From Actinomycetes bacterium (lineage in GTDB: Bacteria; Auribacterota; JAJCYG01): a stretch of 64,000 nt of DNA. The translations under genes and the position numbers were made by a program. The notes beneath the pieces are model-generated. The model was not told the DNA's origin, did not search any database, and saw only the letters and a list, made by a program, of their open reading frames with translations. Every line of letters starts with the position of its first letter. Positions within the stretch are counted from its first letter, which is position 1. Where the stretch lies: positions 21,362-85,361 of the forward strand of contig JAJCYG010000002.1 of NCBI GenBank assembly GCA_029263055.1, written 5' to 3'. Of this stretch, positions 21,361 through 44,308 are shown piece by piece.

Positions 21361-21370
21361 GATTTAAATT

Positions 21371-36778: not shown

Positions 36779-38464
36779 ATGAAAGAAGAATCTGACTGGG
36801 ACATTCAACACGAGATCGAAGCCTTTATAGAGCGAAAAGCTCCCTCCACGCTTCATTATAATCTTTCTGCTGAAGCCTTGTTTCAAAAAGCAATCCGCCG
36901 TAAAGAAGGGGAAGAGACTTCCACTGGAGCTTTTCGTGCGGTTGATTTACCGGTTAATCGCCGGGGTCGTTCGCCCAAAGACAAGTTTTTTGTCAAAGAT
37001 TCCAAATCTAAAGAAGCGCGAAACATTCATTGGGGGCCTAACCAACCCATTGAGCGCGATTGTTTTGAAAAGATTAAGAAAAAACTCTTTGCGCATTTAG
37101 CTGAGCAAAAAGAACTCTTTGTCTTTGATGGGTATGCTGGTGCACATCCTCAGCACCGCATCAAACTCCGTGTCATTAATTCTGTTGCTTGGCAAAACTT
37201 AACCGCGCATCATCTTTTTATTCGTCCAGAAAAAGGAGTGGTGCCCAAGCATGCTCCGCCCGAGCTTACTTTGGTGAGTGCCCCTAATCTTCATTTAGAT
37301 GGAGAAAAAGATGGCGTGCATTCAGATGCCGCCATGCTGATTGATATTAAGAACCAACTGATTCTTATTGTAGGAGCTCCTTATGATGGAGAAATGAAGA
37401 AGTCGGTTTTTACTTATTTGAATTACCTTTATATGGAAGCAGATGGAGTGCTCCCGATGCATGCTTCTGCAAGCCTTGCAGAAAATGGAGAGTGCGTGAT
37501 CTTTTGTGGGCTTTCAGGTACAGGAAAGTCGACCTTATCTGCTCGTAATTTAACCATGGTTGCCGACGATGAATTAGGCTGGGACCAAGAGCAAGGGGTT
37601 TATAACTTTGAAGGAGGCGTCTTTCCTAAAACAGAAGGCTTAGATGAAAAACAAGAGCCAGAACTCTTTCACGGAATTTGTGACACAGCTGTAGTTCAAA
37701 ATGTCCCTTTTGCTTTAATGAAAAACGGAGAACTTCAAAAGAAAAAAGGAAAACCAGTATTAGATTACAAAAACCCTTATCTTAATGAAGAAGAAAAAGA
37801 ACACAATATAGTCACATCAAATGGAAGAGTGGTGGTTCCATTAACACATCTTCCTAAAGCAGTACAAAGTGGATTAGGGGGTAAGCCAAAAGTTCTTTTC
37901 TTTTTAACCATGGATGCATGGGGTGTGTTGCCGCCCATTTCAATTATTAAAGATCCTAAAATGATTAAGTATCTCTTTTTGTCAGGCTACACAGCTAAAG
38001 CCCCAGGAACAGAAGTAGGGGAAGCCAGCTTAGAACCTAGTGCCACCTTTAGTTCGCTTTTTGGCGAACCTTTTTTTCCGCGCCCTTATATTGCCTATGC
38101 TGACCGTTTAATGGAGCACATCAAAACAGAAAAGGTGGCGGTTTACTTACTAAACACAGGCTGGAGTGGCGGCAAATATGGAGTGGGCAAGCGGATGAAC
38201 TTAAACAAAATAACCATTCCTTTACGAGATGCTGCCATCAATCAAACTTTAGACATCACCTCTAAAAACTTAACCGAGCACTCTATATTCAAAGGATTAT
38301 GGATGCCCAAAGAGGTTCCAGGTATCACGGATCCTTTCATCTTAAATCCCAAATCCTCTTGGCCTAAAGACAAACAAAGCCAATACAACGATATTGCCCA
38401 TTCCCTAGTCCACCGCTTCCAAGCCAATGCCAAAAACAAAGAATTTTCAGAACTCATTCCTTAA
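36779..38464 (+). CDS. pckA: Phosphoenolpyruvate carboxykinase (ATP), leaderless
   Basis: 561 aa. Motifs: GRSPKDKFFV, kinase-1a P-loop GLSGTGKSTLSA near nt 37509, and LLNTGWSGG. Confidence 0.9.
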   Translation: MKEESDWDIQHEIEAFIERKAPSTLHYNLSAEALFQKAIRRKEGEETSTGAFRAVDLPVNRRGRSPKDKFFVKDSKSKEARNIHWGPNQPIERDCFEKIKKKLFAHLAEQKELFVFDGYAGAHPQHRIKLRVINSVAWQNLTAHHLFIRPEKGVVPKHAPPELTLVSAPNLHLDGEKDGVHSDAAMLIDIKNQLILIVGAPYDGEMKKSVFTYLNYLYMEADGVLPMHASASLAENGECVIFCGLSGTGKSTLSARNLTMVADDELGWDQEQGVYNFEGGVFPKTEGLDEKQEPELFHGICDTAVVQNVPFALMKNGELQKKKGKPVLDYKNPYLNEEEKEHNIVTSNGRVVVPLTHLPKAVQSGLGGKPKVLFFLTMDAWGVLPPISIIKDPKMIKYLFLSGYTAKAPGTEVGEASLEPSATFSSLFGEPFFPRPYIAYADRLMEHIKTEKVAVYLLNTGWSGGKYGVGKRMNLNKITIPLRDAAINQTLDITSKNLTEHSIFKGLWMPKEVPGITDPFILNPKSSWPKDKQSQYNDIAHSLVHRFQANAKNKEFSELIP

Positions 38465-38538
38465 GAACAGCTTGCTCTGATTGTTCTCTCTTGAAAAAAA
38501 GTGCTTTTTTTGTTATATTATTTGTCTATTTTATTTAA

Positions 38539-40719
38539 ATGCAGATAGTTATGATTAAAAAAATAACCCTACTTATCACTCTTTTTTTAGCCACTCAGCA
38601 GGCAGTCATGCAACCTGTGAGCAGGATTTTTTTCTATAAAAATTTACAACCTACCAGTCAGATCAAGGAAATTTCAAAAAAAATTAAAAGAAAACCAAAA
38701 GAAATAAAGCCAATCACGATTAGATGGGAACAGTTACTCGGCAAGTCTTTGCCTGAACGAGTGACTCTTTTAAGGGAAAACATGAATCACACCTATCTTA
38801 CTTTAGCTGATGAAATACTTATTGGCTGGCGAACGCTCTCTCGTTTTGAAAAAGGGGGGACTGTGAATCACACAACAATAAAAAAGATCCTTGGTTATTT
38901 TAAACGTATCGGAGTCAATGAAAACTGGTTGTATGGATTTACTTTAAAGAATGAAGACTTAGTTGGAAAGACCTTTCGAGAAAGGGTAAAACTACTTCGA
39001 GAAAATCTTGGATGGAGTTATTTAAAAATGGCAGAGGTTGCCATTGTTGATGAAGGTACAGTCCGCCGAATTGAAAATCTAGAAGATGATTTTATTCCTT
39101 CACCCTTAACAAAAAATAAATTTATTTCAGCATTTAAAAAATATGGAGCTCCTGATCATTGGTTTATCGATGAAGTGACTCTTTCTGCAGAGGATTTTGT
39201 TGGAAAAACATTTGGACAAAAAGTAGAAATGGTTAGAAAAAACTTATGCTGGGAGAAACAAGTTTTAGCACGTGAATTGTCGATTCATCACGCAACTATT
39301 TCGGGTGTAGAGAATGAACATAAACATTATACCCCGAGTAAAGAAATGGTGAAAAAGTTTGTTGATTTGTTTGTTTTGTATGGAGCAGAAGAAGAGTGGT
39401 TTGAAGATGATGGGCGTTTTGAAAGGGTCTATAAAAAGATTAAAGAAACGAGGGGTAGTTTAAAAAAAGAGGACATTATTGGCTTTAGGTTTGGACTTAA
39501 AATATTATTGCTTCGCACTTATTTGGGTTTGAAGCAGGGTGATGTTGCAAGCGATTTACAAATGAGTACTCAAACAGTATGTTTATTTGAAAAAGGTGTT
39601 CAGAAATATAAATGGAGAAAATCGACTTTGCTGAAATTAGTTCGTTATTTCGGTGAAAAAGGAATCCCTGAAGAATGGGTGGTTCATGATATGCGCATTC
39701 CTGGCATTACCCCGTATAAAGTAAGATATCTTTTTGAGCGTTTTGACTGTGATTTGAAGGAATTTGCTGAGCTGGTTGGCTTAAATGAAAAACATTTAAA
39801 AAAGATCCTTGATTTAAAAGGGGAGATAACGCGAAAAACAGAATTGAAATTATTAAAAGCATTTGAACATTATCACGCAATGCATTTACTTGAATTAAGA
39901 GAAGTGACTTTAACAAAAGAATTTTTGGAGGGAAGGTCCATTGGCCAGAGAATTAAATTTTTACGTTTGAATTTAGATTGGACTTACGAACAATTCTTCG
40001 AGGCTATTCAAAAAAAGGTTTCTATTGGAACCTTGCGCAATATTGAAAGTGGTCGGACAAAAAGAATTCAAAGAGATAAACTGATTTCTATTCTTTCGGC
40101 ATTTAAGGATTATGGAGTGACAGAGGATTGGTTTTATGACTCTTTAAGGGAAGAAGATATTAAGGGGCTCTCTTTTAAGAAGCAAATAAATATCTTTCGA
40201 AATAAATTGAAGCTTACTCTGTCTGAATTAGCTTCTAAAGCTAGAATTGGCGAATCTGCTTTACGAAAAATAAATGCTCAAACATTGCGTTCAACTAAAG
40301 AGAAGCTTATTGATGTCTTTTTGCCTTTTGGTGCAAGAAAAGAATGGTTTGAAGGTTTTGATGGGGTTGAAGAATTAGGTGGAAGAAGAGTCAAAGCGAT
40401 TCATTTAGAAAAAGAAGAAGTGTCAGCGCTTGAGTTTCATGAACGAATAAGAGTTATAAGAGAAGCAATAGGATTGAGTCGATCAGAATTAGCCGAGTTG
40501 GCAGGATTGACCAAGACAACACTAAATAGTATAGAAACAAGACCTCTTAAAAGGGCGATGATCACAACATACAAAAACTTAGGTTTGATATTAACTGTAT
40601 TTGCACACTATGGAGTGACTTCTGATTGGTTTGAAGATTTGAAGGTTTTTAAACCTATTCTTTTTTCCGAGCATGTTAAATCAGTCCCTTTGCCCAATTT
40701 ATTTGAAATAGCAATATAA
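38539..40719 (+). CDS. Leader-tagged protein of eight tandem XRE-type helix-turn-helix modules
   Basis: 726 aa. About eight units of 75-80 aa, each of the form [F-x-x-R/K-hydrophobic-x-x-hydrophobic-R...G/W-S/T...L-A...T-hydrophobic-x-x-hydrophobic-E], followed by a [YF]G-x4-W[FLV] tail (YGAPDHWF, YGAEEEWF, YGVTEDWF, FGARKEWF, YGVTSDWF...). Leader MIKKITLLITLFLATQQAVMQPVSRIFFYKNLQPTS; C-terminus ...LFEIAI. Confidence 0.65.
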   Translation: MQIVMIKKITLLITLFLATQQAVMQPVSRIFFYKNLQPTSQIKEISKKIKRKPKEIKPITIRWEQLLGKSLPERVTLLRENMNHTYLTLADEILIGWRTLSRFEKGGTVNHTTIKKILGYFKRIGVNENWLYGFTLKNEDLVGKTFRERVKLLRENLGWSYLKMAEVAIVDEGTVRRIENLEDDFIPSPLTKNKFISAFKKYGAPDHWFIDEVTLSAEDFVGKTFGQKVEMVRKNLCWEKQVLARELSIHHATISGVENEHKHYTPSKEMVKKFVDLFVLYGAEEEWFEDDGRFERVYKKIKETRGSLKKEDIIGFRFGLKILLLRTYLGLKQGDVASDLQMSTQTVCLFEKGVQKYKWRKSTLLKLVRYFGEKGIPEEWVVHDMRIPGITPYKVRYLFERFDCDLKEFAELVGLNEKHLKKILDLKGEITRKTELKLLKAFEHYHAMHLLELREVTLTKEFLEGRSIGQRIKFLRLNLDWTYEQFFEAIQKKVSIGTLRNIESGRTKRIQRDKLISILSAFKDYGVTEDWFYDSLREEDIKGLSFKKQINIFRNKLKLTLSELASKARIGESALRKINAQTLRSTKEKLIDVFLPFGARKEWFEGFDGVEELGGRRVKAIHLEKEEVSALEFHERIRVIREAIGLSRSELAELAGLTKTTLNSIETRPLKRAMITTYKNLGLILTVFAHYGVTSDWFEDLKVFKPILFSEHVKSVPLPNLFEIAI

Positions 40720-40939
40720 TTTGTAAGGTATAAGTATTTATATCAAGGTTGTTTAGGGTATATATCTTGTCTGATGTCGTCGTGGCTTCTCTTGCCTTTT
40801 TATTCTAAAAGGTTTAAATTACCCATTCTTTCTTAACGATTATGAGAATAAAAAACTGCATATCTTCTCAGTCTTATCGTCACCAATTTAGTCCTGCAAG
40901 ACCTTTCTATCTATTTACCTTTAAAAGGAGGAGTTGTTT

Positions 40940-43900
40940 ATGTTGCGCATCATAAGTGGAGTGGTTTCGTTTTTGTTTTTGTTTCAATCGGTGATTACGG
41001 TTGATTTGCAGTTAGCCTCTTTAAAGGGGTTAAATCGGTTTTTAGCTCCTCCTGCTGAATTGCCGGTTCAACCTCCTAAACGAGAAATTATTTCAGCTCC
41101 TGTAGCGGATCTTAATTTTGAAGCAACACAGATTGAAGATTCTAAAGGAAGACCGACTGTTCAAGTGACGATTACTTATAAAGGTATTTCTGTTGTTGGA
41201 GCGGTTCCTGCAGGAACGTCTACAGGGGATGATGAAGCCAACACATTACCAACTGAGCAAGCAATCACAGCCCTTCGAGATGTGATTTTTTCTGGAATTA
41301 AAGAAATGGATTTAGATTTAAGCAATCACAAAGACCTTATTCAAATCGAAGAGTGGTTGATTGCTAATGCGGGCGAAAATTTTAAAACTTGGGGGGCTAA
41401 TGCCACGGTTCCTTTATCATGGGCGTTGTGGGAAATGGCTGCCAAGCTAAATAGTTTGGAACTTGATGAATACTTTGCTGGGTTTGTTCCTGAAACAGCA
41501 GGGGCGCCGGGAAGTGTTCGTTTTTATATGAACATCTACAACGGTGGTGAGCATGCGCGTCAAGAGGGTGAAGAGTTAGGCAAAGATCGTATTGATATTC
41601 AAGAGATCATGATTGTTCCTGACGATTCATTTCCTTATGAAGAGCAGCTCGCTATTGGAGATAAAGTTGACCAAGAATTAAAAGCCATTTTGATCGAAGC
41701 TGATGCCGGTGAAATTAGTCGCGGAAACGAGTCTGGGTTTACGGTTAAAGGAATCGGTGACAGTGATGTGGCTATAGGACATGTCTTTGAAGCCATCAAA
41801 CGAGCTGGGTATACGCCTGGAGCCGATGTGAAGCTTGCCTTGGATGTGGCTGCCAGTGAGTTCTATGATCGTGATGCAGGTGTTTACAACTTTCGTGGAG
41901 AAAAACTCAGTTCAGAGCAAATGGTTACTTACTATGCTGACTTAGTTGAGACTTATGCTGGAATGTTTCTTTCTATTGAAGATGGAATGGATCAAAACGA
42001 TTGGGAAGGTTGGAAACTTTTTAAAGAAGTGATGGCCAATCAGAATGTTGAAACAATCGGAGATGATCTCTTTGTGACCCAACAAGGACGTTTGCAAAAA
42101 GGGATTGATGAAAACTCCGCCAGTTCTATTTTAATTAAAGTGAATCAAAATGGTTCTGTTTTAGGAACGTTAAAAGTCATTCGTCAAGCCATTGGTGCCA
42201 ACATGAGCTTTGTGATCTCGCACCGCTCAGGTGAAACGTTGCACACAGGAATTGCTGATTTAGCTGAAGCAACCGGAGCACTTGGTTTGAAAACAGGAGA
42301 TCCACAACCACCAGCAGATACTGAATATTTCGGTGATCCTTCTCAACAAGTCCGTCGCGTGAAGTACGAACGCATGGTTACGATTCAAGAACGCAAAGCA
42401 GCCAAAGATGCGCGTGCAAAAGCAAGATTGAAAAAACAGCTAACATTGCTTGGTCTTGATGTTGAGGATACAACCTTGTATCACAACGCACCGATTCGTC
42501 AACTCTTTGATATTGCGGAGTTAAATGGTGAAGGGCGTCGTACAGCAACAGGTGCTTTTTTGGTTAATCCAACAAATAAGCTCGACCGTGGACGTCGAAA
42601 AAAACACCGTTATGTGGTGCAAGTTAAAGGGAGTGAAGCCGATCAAAATATGGGATGGCATACTGAAGATAAACCTTCTCCAAATAAACCGATCACACCA
42701 GAACATTACAAAAGAATTAAAGCCAAAGTGGTCAAACATCTTTCTGATCGTGGAGAGCTTTTTGTTGGAGATTATCTTTCAGCAAGACATGAAGGATATC
42801 AAAAGCGTGTTCGTTACATCGGTGAAAAAGCGTTCCAAGCTGTGGGGGTTCGCCACCTTTTTGTGCGACCAGAAGCTGAAAACCAAGTGGGTGATTTAGG
42901 CCCTGCAGATTTTACTATTTTAACCGCTCCTGATTATAAGATTGAGCGAGAAGATCGTATGCCGCATCAAAAAGATGGTGAAGCTGATTACGCCATGATT
43001 ATTGTCGATGTGGAAAATGGGTTGGTCATCATTACTGGAACCAACTACATTGGTGAAAATAAAAAATCAATCTTTGCCTTGATGAACTATGTGTTTGGTT
43101 TGACTGAAGGAACGGTTTCAACTCACTCTTCAGCTGGGCAATCAGAGACAACTGGAAATGTAGGCGTTTGGAAAGGGTTGTCTGGAACCGGTAAATCTTC
43201 TCTTTCAGCTAAAGATGGAGTTGAGAGTTTTTCTGATGATGAAACCACGATCTGGATTGAGCCTAAGACCTATAAAGAAATTCGTTCTGCAATGGAATCT
43301 GGAGCAACATTACCTGATGACTTGGTTCAAGGGGTTTTAAGTGGGGAGCTCGCAGGTATCTTTGATATTGAAGGGGGACTTTTTCCTAAAACATGGGAGC
43401 TGACTCCAGAAAAAGAGGGACGTCTGTACCGTGCTAGTCGTTCGTATCCAGCCATTCTTCAAAATGTGCCGACTGTTCGTGAAGGGGATGAAGAAGTTTT
43501 AGTTGATGGTCGGCCGATTCCTGATTTTATGGCCCACCATTTGCATGGAGAAGATATTGTTATTGCCAATGGTCGTGCAACGTTCCCACGTGAAAGTATG
43601 CCTGATACACCTCAAGATGGTTTAGGTGGACCGCCTAACGTGATGTTTTATTTGACCCAAGATCGCATGGGCGTGCTGCCTCCTGTGTCAGTTATTAAAT
43701 CTGCTGAAGATGCGCAGTTTTTAAATCTGTTAGGTTACACAGCAACAGCTGCAGGTACTGAGCAAGGGGCAAAACCAGGTGCGACTTACAGTCCATTATT
43801 TGGAGACCCATTTTTTCCGGGTCCATTTGAATTGTATGCACGTAAAGAGACTGAAATTATTGGGGCATTAAACTATGTTCGCAATCAAGCAGGTCTGAAG

Positions 43901-44308
43901 CCAATTCCATTTGTTCTTTTAAATACAGGTTGGAGTGGTGGACCTGAAGGAACAGGAAAACGGATGTCAATTAACTTAACGGTTCGTTTACGTGATGCGG
44001 CATTAAATGGAGACTTAGATTTAAGTGAAGAAAATTTAGTCGAGCATCCTATTTTTAAGGGATTGCTTGTGCCTAAAGTGGTGCCGGGTGTGACAGATTC
44101 AAAAGAAGTCGCTTCTTTAGATCCTGTTAATTCCTGGCCTGAAGATCGACGTGCTGATTATGAGCCCGAAGCAACAGAGCTTTTTGGCACTTGGGGTAAA
44201 CAAGCCAGCCAGCGAGGTTTTTGGCAGCTTTACCCAGGAAGCAATGGGTTTGCTTCCTTAGATGAGTTAGACGCTTCACGTAAATCAGCGGCTTCTATTA
44301 GCATTTAA
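40940..44308 (+). CDS. Leader-tagged enolase + ATP-dependent PEP carboxykinase fusion
   Basis: ATG 40940 lies 6 nt after AAGGAGGAG (the track starts at TTG 40934). The enolase domain lies around nt 41080-42400 (DSKGRPTVQV, AVPAGTSTGDDEA, LDVAASEFY, SIEDGMDQNDW, GDDLFVTQ, LIKVNQNGS, ISHRSGET, LKTGDP). The PEPCK domain lies around 42440-44250 (GLSGTGKSSLSA near nt 43174, LLNTGWSGG). Leader MLRIISGVVSFLFLFQSVITVDL...NRFLAPPAE; C-terminus ...AASISI. Confidence 0.85.
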   Translation: MLRIISGVVSFLFLFQSVITVDLQLASLKGLNRFLAPPAELPVQPPKREIISAPVADLNFEATQIEDSKGRPTVQVTITYKGISVVGAVPAGTSTGDDEANTLPTEQAITALRDVIFSGIKEMDLDLSNHKDLIQIEEWLIANAGENFKTWGANATVPLSWALWEMAAKLNSLELDEYFAGFVPETAGAPGSVRFYMNIYNGGEHARQEGEELGKDRIDIQEIMIVPDDSFPYEEQLAIGDKVDQELKAILIEADAGEISRGNESGFTVKGIGDSDVAIGHVFEAIKRAGYTPGADVKLALDVAASEFYDRDAGVYNFRGEKLSSEQMVTYYADLVETYAGMFLSIEDGMDQNDWEGWKLFKEVMANQNVETIGDDLFVTQQGRLQKGIDENSASSILIKVNQNGSVLGTLKVIRQAIGANMSFVISHRSGETLHTGIADLAEATGALGLKTGDPQPPADTEYFGDPSQQVRRVKYERMVTIQERKAAKDARAKARLKKQLTLLGLDVEDTTLYHNAPIRQLFDIAELNGEGRRTATGAFLVNPTNKLDRGRRKKHRYVVQVKGSEADQNMGWHTEDKPSPNKPITPEHYKRIKAKVVKHLSDRGELFVGDYLSARHEGYQKRVRYIGEKAFQAVGVRHLFVRPEAENQVGDLGPADFTILTAPDYKIEREDRMPHQKDGEADYAMIIVDVENGLVIITGTNYIGENKKSIFALMNYVFGLTEGTVSTHSSAGQSETTGNVGVWKGLSGTGKSSLSAKDGVESFSDDETTIWIEPKTYKEIRSAMESGATLPDDLVQGVLSGELAGIFDIEGGLFPKTWELTPEKEGRLYRASRSYPAILQNVPTVREGDEEVLVDGRPIPDFMAHHLHGEDIVIANGRATFPRESMPDTPQDGLGGPPNVMFYLTQDRMGVLPPVSVIKSAEDAQFLNLLGYTATAAGTEQGAKPGATYSPLFGDPFFPGPFELYARKETEIIGALNYVRNQAGLKPIPFVLLNTGWSGGPEGTGKRMSINLTVRLRDAALNGDLDLSEENLVEHPIFKGLLVPKVVPGVTDSKEVASLDPVNSWPEDRRADYEPEATELFGTWGKQASQRGFWQLYPGSNGFASLDELDASRKSAASISI

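Follow-up and report, generated by a model that had tools for sequence, protein, structure and literature searches.

The helix-turn-helix (HTH) of the XRE type is a textbook cytoplasmic DNA-binding module, and the known members of the XRE/Cro-C1 family are small, cytoplasmic proteins with one HTH that act as dimers on palindromic operators. Here we describe a gene whose product, termed poly-HTH, carries eight such domains in one chain. It lies in a 64,000-nucleotide stretch of DNA (the window) from a bacterium of the phylum Auribacterota, taken from positions 21,362 to 85,361 of the forward strand of contig JAJCYG010000002.1 (GenBank assembly GCA_029263055.1). Each poly-HTH module resembles the XRE/Cro-C1 domains in its sequence profile as well as in its predicted five-helix fold (template modelling (TM) score 0.6–0.8, target-normalised; probability 1.0). 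Unlike known XRE proteins, however, the domains lie behind an export-type leader, which is followed by a short L-x-P box, and before a sorting-type C-terminal tail. Poly-HTH is an array of ordinary XRE domains bearing an undescribed two-ended export or sorting label; proteins with this label at both ends are called tagged (or double-tagged) below.

Several other described systems invite comparison. The transcription activator-like (TAL) effectors of Xanthomonas (TALEs) and AnkA of Anaplasma are bacterial nucleomodulins. Like poly-HTH, such proteins are bacterial tandem arrays that can in principle bind DNA and are apparently destined for a place outside the cytoplasm of the cell that makes them. 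TALE repeats, however, are two-helix units of 34 residues that read one base each, and TALEs are injected through a type III system without a Sec leader, whereas each repeat of poly-HTH is a whole HTH domain and its leader is of the Sec type. ComEA shows that a non-specific DNA binder can carry a leader and act outside the cytoplasm; unlike poly-HTH, it uses a helix-hairpin-helix. RodZ provides a precedent for a membrane-anchored XRE HTH engaged in protein contact, but has a single N-terminal HTH on the cytoplasmic side of its anchor, and poly-HTH matched the RodZ model of NCBIfam far below the cut-off (17 versus 208 bits). A literature search found no paper that deals with arrays of XRE domains or with XRE proteins that are secreted.

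Eight complete XRE domains in one chain

The initial annotation had described the product as about eight tandem XRE-type units, and this number was recovered in two ways, by a phmmer self-scan seeded with the last unit and by a hidden Markov model (HMM) of the units (Table 1). Pairwise identity among the eight units is 11–38%. In Pfam, the protein matched HTH_3 (PF01381) in six stretches with 107.5 bits (cut-off 23) and an E-value of 3.4e-31; the overlapping models HTH_31 and HTH_19 also matched, and there was nothing else of weight. Unlike the classical cytoplasmic XRE regulators with their one HTH, poly-HTH thus comprises eight HTH domains and a hydrophobic leader, with no further domain. 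The open reading frame (ORF) proposed at the outset was found in the ORF list, and both peptides quoted with it were located in the translation, at residues 633–667 and 225–259.

The motif [YF]G-x4-W[FLV], which had been said to end each unit, is strict in five units and near-strict (G-x4-W) in units 1 and 4, whereas unit 5 has a degenerate form of it or none. Rather than being an added element, the motif is helix 5 of the ordinary XRE fold, represented by 'aLgvs.dyLl' in HTH_3. Module 5, which is of a short type, lacks the N-terminal extension, the tryptophan of helix 5 and an Arg/Glu pair discussed below; the short type also occurs in two relatives of poly-HTH, P0002 (module 5) and P0003 (modules 2 and 5). 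The gene contains no DNA-level tandem repeat of unit length (~230 nt), so that the repeats are old rather than an artefact of assembly, as had been supposed from their divergence at the DNA level. The sole nucleotide similarity among the units is a 29-nt stretch at the YG..WF codons, which is 69–79% identical.

The earlier proposal would have fallen with a non-HTH fold, and profiles and structural models agree that the modules truly belong to the XRE type of HTH domain. A profile built from 24 modules matched 50 solved XRE domains in the PDB, including those of 434 repressor, HipB, SinR, CylR2 and P22 c2; phmmer with the whole poly-HTH protein as query matched no PDB chain. The full-length AlphaFold2 model, built on an alignment of only two sequences, had a mean predicted local distance difference test (pLDDT) score of 65 and a predicted TM score (pTM) of 0.28, the latter making it uninformative on the packing between modules. 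Within it each module consists of a short helix followed by helices H1–H5 at pLDDT 70–88, while the leader, the linkers and the tail (residues 1–55 and 701–726 included) stay below 50. As every Foldseek E-value obtained with the full-length model exceeded 0.1, module 8 was modelled separately from an alignment of 24 modules of the three orthologues (poly-HTH, P0002 and P0003), which gave pLDDT 88 and pTM 0.77. The top 50 Foldseek matches of this model in the PDB were all XRE HTH domains with probabilities of 0.99–1.0 (1.00 for 48 of the 50). The best was CapH-NTD (E 4.8e-4, TM 0.77), and the others included HipB, SinR (with the SinR/SinI entry 1b0n), C.BclI, C.AhdI, P22 c2, 434 repressor and HppE. 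An Arg in helix 1 and a Glu at the end of helix 3 are retained in six of the eight modules, a pair that in 434 repressor forms the buried salt bridge. With inter-module linkers of ~10 residues, the chain is a flexible beads-on-a-string arrangement of eight complete five-helix XRE domains.

Table 1. Features of the poly-HTH gene and its product, in window coordinates
Feature	Position	Strand	Basis or remark
Sigma-70-like promoter candidate, TTGAAA-17-TATATT, TG before -10	38491..38519	+	Consensus scan, 10/12 matches
Poly-HTH ORF, first ATG included	38539..40719	+	726 aa; 722 aa from ATG at 38551
Sec-type leader: MIKK + core ITLLITLFLAT (11 residues) + polar QQAVMQPV	38551..38619	+	Read from sequence; hydropathy heuristic
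Post-leader box LQPTS, residues 36–40	38644..38658	+	Q variant of L-[AS]-P-x-[ST]
Basic linker QIKEISKKIKRKPKEIKP, probably disordered	38659..38712	+	Read from sequence; pLDDT <50 over residues 1–55
XRE module 1, residues 59–133, pI 9.8	38713..38937	+	Unit HMM, model
XRE module 2, residues 134–211; acidic helix 3 start VDEGT, kept in orthologue	38938..39171	+	Unit HMM
XRE module 3, residues 213–290, pI 5.5	39175..39408	+	Unit HMM
XRE module 4, residues 306–383; basic helical linker 291–305 before it	39454..39687	+	Unit HMM, model
XRE module 5, residues 389–452; short type beginning after 'PGIT', most degenerate	39703..39894	+	Unit HMM
XRE module 6, residues 456–534	39904..40140	+	Unit HMM
XRE module 7, residues 535–606, pI 10.2	40141..40356	+	Unit HMM
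XRE module 8, residues 621–700; best conserved between orthologues by far	40399..40638	+	Alignment, single-module model
C-terminal tail region; last six residues LFEIAI (40699–40716)	40639..40716	+	

Relatives of poly-HTH and related arrays

When 1.84 billion representative proteins were searched in full with HMMER, 18 matched; two of these are true relatives, and the rest are untagged arrays of 3–12 XRE domains from unrelated bacteria. P0002 (Logan DRR538836) has 711 aa, 46% identity and eight collinear modules, while P0003 (Logan SRR17165172) has 996 aa, 30–32% identity and nine modules plus an N-terminal region of ~220 residues. A word-indexed search of 5.8 billion proteins returned only P0002, whether the query was the protein alone or a profile of three sequences, and scans of genome contigs yielded no further member of the family. 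Among 79 genomes of the phylum, the module family was detected at E <= 1e-6 only in the genome of the window (G000); 60 relatives searched beforehand had likewise contained no member. The combination of features had been called very unusual, and indeed just three proteins with it, the window protein, P0002 and P0003, were found among the 1.84 billion representatives.

The neighbourhood of P0002 is the same as in the window over more than 20 kb, with a leaderless phosphoenolpyruvate carboxykinase (PEPCK) upstream and a tagged PEPCK downstream; the latter, in the relative L002, comes without an enolase part and has the box NLAPLA and the tail AATSI. In the window, the poly-HTH gene directly follows the leaderless PEPCK gene (36779–38464, +), and on its downstream side is an enolase-PEPCK fusion (40934–44308, +) that is double-tagged. 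The P0003 gene is followed by the same small ORF and the same pyruvoyl arginine decarboxylase gene as in the window. Judged from these comparisons, the poly-HTH gene is real and under selection, because two syntenic orthologues keep the leader, the box and the tail, with the modules collinear or expanded.

That XRE regulators normally have a single HTH holds as a rule, but untagged arrays of 8–12 HTH_3 domains exist in unrelated bacteria: P0004 (2,059 aa) has 10–12, P0006 (1,019 aa) has 10 and P0013 (703 aa) has 8. Further untagged arrays with 3–6 HTH_3 domains are P0005, P0007–P0012 and P0017. Like poly-HTH, the untagged arrays consist of complete XRE domains set head to tail, with a period of ~75–100 residues. 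Unlike poly-HTH, they begin directly with an HTH and have no leader, L-x-P box or tail, and they are related to it only distantly (E 1e-20 to 1e-4); presumably, they are cytoplasmic. The array itself is therefore not unique, whereas the export-type tag on an array is.

A label at both ends of the protein

By a hydropathy heuristic, which is not a dedicated signal-peptide predictor, the N-terminus of poly-HTH follows the Sec-type pattern of a positive n-region, a core of ~7–15 residues and a polar c-region, and this leader is conserved in P0002 and P0003. The box is LQP rather than LAP or LSP; it reads LQPSS in P0002 and LSPVS in P0003. At the C-terminus, LFEIAI is identical in P0002, and P0003 ends in TETSL. 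A wrongly annotated start could have removed the leader from the protein. The true start is probably the ATG at 38551 (M5) rather than the first ATG at 38539, since the gene call P0001 (722 aa) and its orthologue P0002 both begin at the M5-equivalent residue. The leader is retained with either ATG and is kept in all three orthologous proteins, whose alignment contains no conserved internal Met able to start a leaderless version. The promoter candidate in Table 1 sits 20–30 nt upstream of the start codons; it is a pattern match only, in a region that as a whole is not enriched over shuffles.

The initial annotation had also described the modules as carrying the same leader and tail. All three elements are present in poly-HTH, which is one of 86 such ORFs among the 2,098 ORFs of 120 aa or more that were taken, without overlaps, from the whole genome. 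To be counted, an ORF needed a hydrophobic stretch at its N-terminus and, 5–40 residues past the core, the box [LFM][AQS]P, as well as a C-terminal [AGS][IL]. Leader and box occur together in 153 ORFs and the tail ending in 163, and if the two were independent both ends would be expected in 12 ORFs rather than in 86. The tagged set makes up ~4% of the genes and ~9% of the proteome residues. Across its 86 proteins the box reads [YFAN]-L-[AS]-P-x-[ST], with L in 78, A in 47, S in 35 or Q in 4 at the second position, P in all 86, and S in 47 or T in 22 at the last, so that poly-HTH has the rare Q variant. The tail logo is [VFIL]-[EAGD]-x-[SA]-[LI]-COOH, and the F-E-I-A-I of poly-HTH fits the class tail written as Phi-[EDGA]-x-[SA]-[IL]-COOH.

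Several properties of this set suggest a class that behaves as exported, namely hydrophobic cores of signal-peptide length, positive charge on their N-terminal side and depletion of cysteine. The cores have a median of 12.5 aa, only 2 of 86 reach 19 aa, and that of poly-HTH has 11. Their N-flank averages +2.0 charges, which by the positive-inside rule would place the C-terminal part outside, and in the members of the class whose leaders are shortest, an AxA-like site stands right before the L[AS]P box. Cysteine makes up 0.12% of the tagged mature proteins, nine-fold less than the 1.12% of cytosol-like proteins. Outside its leader, poly-HTH has three cysteines in ~690 residues; the resulting 0.43% falls between the two means. 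P0002 has one in ~680 residues and P0003 none in ~960, and no cysteine position is common to the window protein and P0002. In G000, no DsbA, Thioredoxin_4, DsbB or VKOR family was detected. Exclusion of cysteine from exported proteins in bacteria without Dsb enzymes is a published pattern.

The cargo is diverse. A Pfam scan of 20 tagged proteins found three Ser/Thr protein kinases, two pentapeptide-repeat proteins, and one each of a GNAT acetyltransferase, an AprA-like S-adenosylmethionine (SAM) methyltransferase, an alpha/beta hydrolase and an EamA-type membrane transporter, with 11 proteins left without a match. The kinases are eukaryote-like and lie at C56:20149-22707, C36:134455-135594 and C45:44333-46699 (loci L010, L019 and L024); the pentapeptide-repeat proteins are L017 and L018, the acetyltransferase L021 and the methyltransferase L026. 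Fused metabolic enzymes of the window, such as the enolase-PEPCK, are also tagged, and poly-HTH is the only tagged member with HTH domains in G000. A further hydrophobic segment is absent in 60 of the 86 proteins. The label is nevertheless not confined to soluble proteins, because the EamA-type transporter (L008, C56:11474-12652, -), with ~7 or more hydrophobic segments, carries it in full, with a YLAPES box and an LFEASL tail. Two double-tagged proteins without a Pfam match are also of note. One of them (L007, C117:33787-34752, +; 321 aa) has an isoelectric point (pI) of 10.4 and a net charge of +15 per 100 residues, and is another candidate nucleic-acid binder among the tagged cargo. The other (L012, C100:51378-52952, +; 524 aa) contains five nearly identical tandem repeats of ~41 residues each, running ...KQWLIAVYKVAMKGKAATTALDHAINAFNTHLGNIKDQSEEI...

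NCBIfam offered no model for the tag class among four tagged proteins scanned. Two preprints on giant proteins of Omnitrophota mention signal peptides, and a keyword search of their text returned nothing on a shared box or tail; likewise, the words 'leader' and 'sorting' do not occur in the 2026 Omnitrophota preprint. Four secretin matches are present in G000, one of which (C99:30789-31100) lies amid tagged genes at C99:27976-36544.

Distribution of the label in the phylum

Stretches from two other families of the phylum, G009:C1:1-200000 and G057:C1:1-200000, contained no double-tagged ORFs; in G009 these 200 kb yield no more than 104 ORFs of 120 aa or longer. In G033, which belongs to yet another family, ~12–14 of 278 ORFs in 400 kb are double-tagged, with boxes of the A-L-A-P-P-S type and tails ending in [SA][LVA]. 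The tag as a phylum-wide trait was therefore rejected in view of the G009 and G057 stretches, and its distribution is patchy. No Thioredoxin_4, DsbB or VKOR was detected in G033, DsbA having been searched in G000 only. The idea that cysteine depletion simply tracks the absence of Dsb enzymes was also dropped, the correlation failing between G000 (nine-fold) and G033 (1.6-fold).

G033 also encodes a second double-tagged HTH array (contig C19, L006:61-4197, -), a protein of 1,378 aa that is not orthologous to poly-HTH. Between its leader with a KLAPPS box and its tail SEQAA lie ~300 helical residues, five HTH_3 modules and a kinase domain of the APH type. HTH arrays thus recur as tagged cargo.

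Charge and conservation of the modules

Poly-HTH has a pI of 9.5, with 126 Lys and Arg versus 98 Asp and Glu residues, and ranks seventh among the 86 tagged proteins in basicity; the pI of its modules ranges from 5.5 to 10.2. Between the window protein and P0002, identity is 48% overall, 71% in the helix 5 motif, 56% in helix 1 and 40% in helix 3. Module 8 reaches 68% identity between P0001 and P0002, and its helices 2 and 3 have hardly changed. The drift of the base-contact positions between orthologues argues against eight conserved sequence-specific readers, and binding of a fixed sequence appears unlikely on this comparison, module 8 perhaps excepted. Together with the pI of 9.5, the lower conservation of recognition-helix positions relative to the structural core makes the data lean slightly towards low-specificity nucleic-acid binding.

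Discussion

The exact role of poly-HTH can be approached from its label and from its modules. The initial annotation had proposed a DNA- or nucleoid-binding factor, a nucleomodulin-like effector or a scaffold. We tentatively favour, at somewhat less than an even chance, the reading in which poly-HTH is a basic protein that is exported, binds nucleic acid multivalently and goes where the other tagged proteins go. In this scheme the HTH chain would pass through the cytoplasmic membrane by means of the leader, after which a lineage-specific sorting or processing step would read the box and the tail and bring the protein to the place where the tagged kinases, acetyltransferase, methyltransferase and fused metabolic enzymes also end up. 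This place may be the periplasm, the cell surface or an internal compartment, but also extracellular DNA or another cell. Once there, the eight modules would bind nucleic acid, most likely double-stranded DNA, via many weak contacts and with no fixed operator, and module 8, conserved throughout, may be the one specific contact.

A number of observations weigh against such a role. Neither the window protein nor P0002 shows a clear AxA-type signal-peptidase site behind the core, and two lysines directly follow the hydrophobic core of P0002; these features make cleavage, and even topology, uncertain. The tagged proteins of G033 contain 0.95% cysteine versus 1.52%, which is a depletion of only 1.6-fold. 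As to the modules, two of them are acidic (pI 5.5 and 5.9), a conserved D-E opens the recognition helix of module 2, and at the five positions that correspond to base and backbone contacts in 434 repressor the orthologues share only 35% identity, compared with 48% overall. This drift fits non-specific binding but is equally compatible with a role that does not involve DNA. The fold itself has non-DNA uses, as the presence of HppE among the matches illustrates, and RodZ binds MreB through its HTH. Moreover, a periplasmic DNA receptor already exists in the organism, since contig C17 carries a canonical comEA-comEC pair, with a 121-aa HHH_3 protein ~1.6 kb upstream of comEC. A substitute for ComEA is unlikely and was rejected as the main explanation in view of this pair; poly-HTH itself has no HHH_3 domain.

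Should the XRE bundles have lost DNA binding, they may form a protein scaffold or adaptor that docks tagged cargo or envelope components at the shared destination, which we consider rather unlikely. The recognition-helix positions that drift (35%), the acidic modules and the D-E start of helix 3 in module 2 would all suit it. Helices 5 and 1, the possible partner surfaces, are the most conserved, but they also form the hydrophobic core of the fold, and their conservation may be purely structural. There is precedent for the XRE fold in protein contacts between RodZ and MreB and between SinR and SinI, and the entry for the latter complex, 1b0n, is among the fold matches. The fusion of the G033 array to a kinase domain also looks like a targeting or docking module. 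In two genomes the poly-HTH gene is flanked by a tagged and an untagged PEPCK gene, which would also suit a scaffold; however, the synteny spans more than 20 kb of unrelated genes and so says nothing specific. A scaffold would leave the overall basic charge unexplained, and no partner has been identified. Quite improbable, in our opinion, is a membrane-tethered cytoplasmic regulator or nucleoid tether, in which the leader would serve as an uncleaved anchor and the array would bind the cell's own chromosome. It would account for the absence of an obvious signal-peptidase site, would accommodate the ambiguous topology created by the KK right behind the P0002 core, and would remove the paradox of ATP-, coenzyme A (CoA)- and SAM-dependent enzymes and DNA-binding domains with an export-type leader. 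Yet the cores are of signal-peptide rather than anchor length (11 aa in poly-HTH, with a class median of 12.5), the N-terminus should lie inside to judge from the charge bias, the nine-fold cysteine depletion of the class would have no explanation on the cytoplasmic face, and the conserved C-terminal tail would be left without an evident role.

It is very improbable that the chain is a polyprotein, cut at the module junctions after export to release eight single XRE domains. The region of helix 5 and the junction (YG..DWF.D / vTL..ED) is the best-conserved part of the protein, as such cutting might lead one to expect, but the conserved residues are those of the canonical end of the XRE fold (aLgvs.dyLl), for which no cleavage motif is needed; linker columns 1–12 are only moderately conserved, and no protease is linked to the locus. 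We also see a small chance that the answer is none of these, neither a nucleic-acid binder nor a scaffold, a tethered regulator or a polyprotein.

A more far-reaching version of the exported binder, which we regard as unlikely, is a secreted DNA-binding protein that would travel with the tagged enzymes to another cell, enter it or settle on it, and there coat or reprogram a foreign chromosome. In that event poly-HTH would be a nucleomodulin built from XRE domains and comparable to the TAL effectors, used for microbe-microbe interaction, an idea to which we likewise give little credence. It is kept alive because the cargo profile, with kinases, an acetyltransferase, a methyltransferase and an HTH array, resembles the effector sets of host-associated bacteria. 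The delivery of poly-HTH into another cell is pure conjecture at this point: no dedicated injection signal was recognised in the protein, and the secretins of the genome are not linked to its gene. If it were true, HTH arrays, given their recurrence in G033, would be exported as a general type of effector by an undescribed sorting pathway.

The significance of poly-HTH is limited by its rarity, as it is represented by three orthologous proteins, all from uncultured organisms. Nevertheless, a conserved protein that consists of HTH domains and carries export and sorting signals departs from the textbook picture of the XRE family. If it leaves the cytoplasm, there must be either a nucleic-acid target outside, such as extracellular DNA or the chromosome of another cell, or an extracellular protein-binding repeat made from the XRE fold, and either would be new. 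Being soluble, free of cofactors, easily expressed and easily assayed for binding, poly-HTH is also a convenient probe of the two-ended tag. Locating it would reveal the destination of the whole tagged class, including its ATP-, CoA- and SAM-dependent enzymes.

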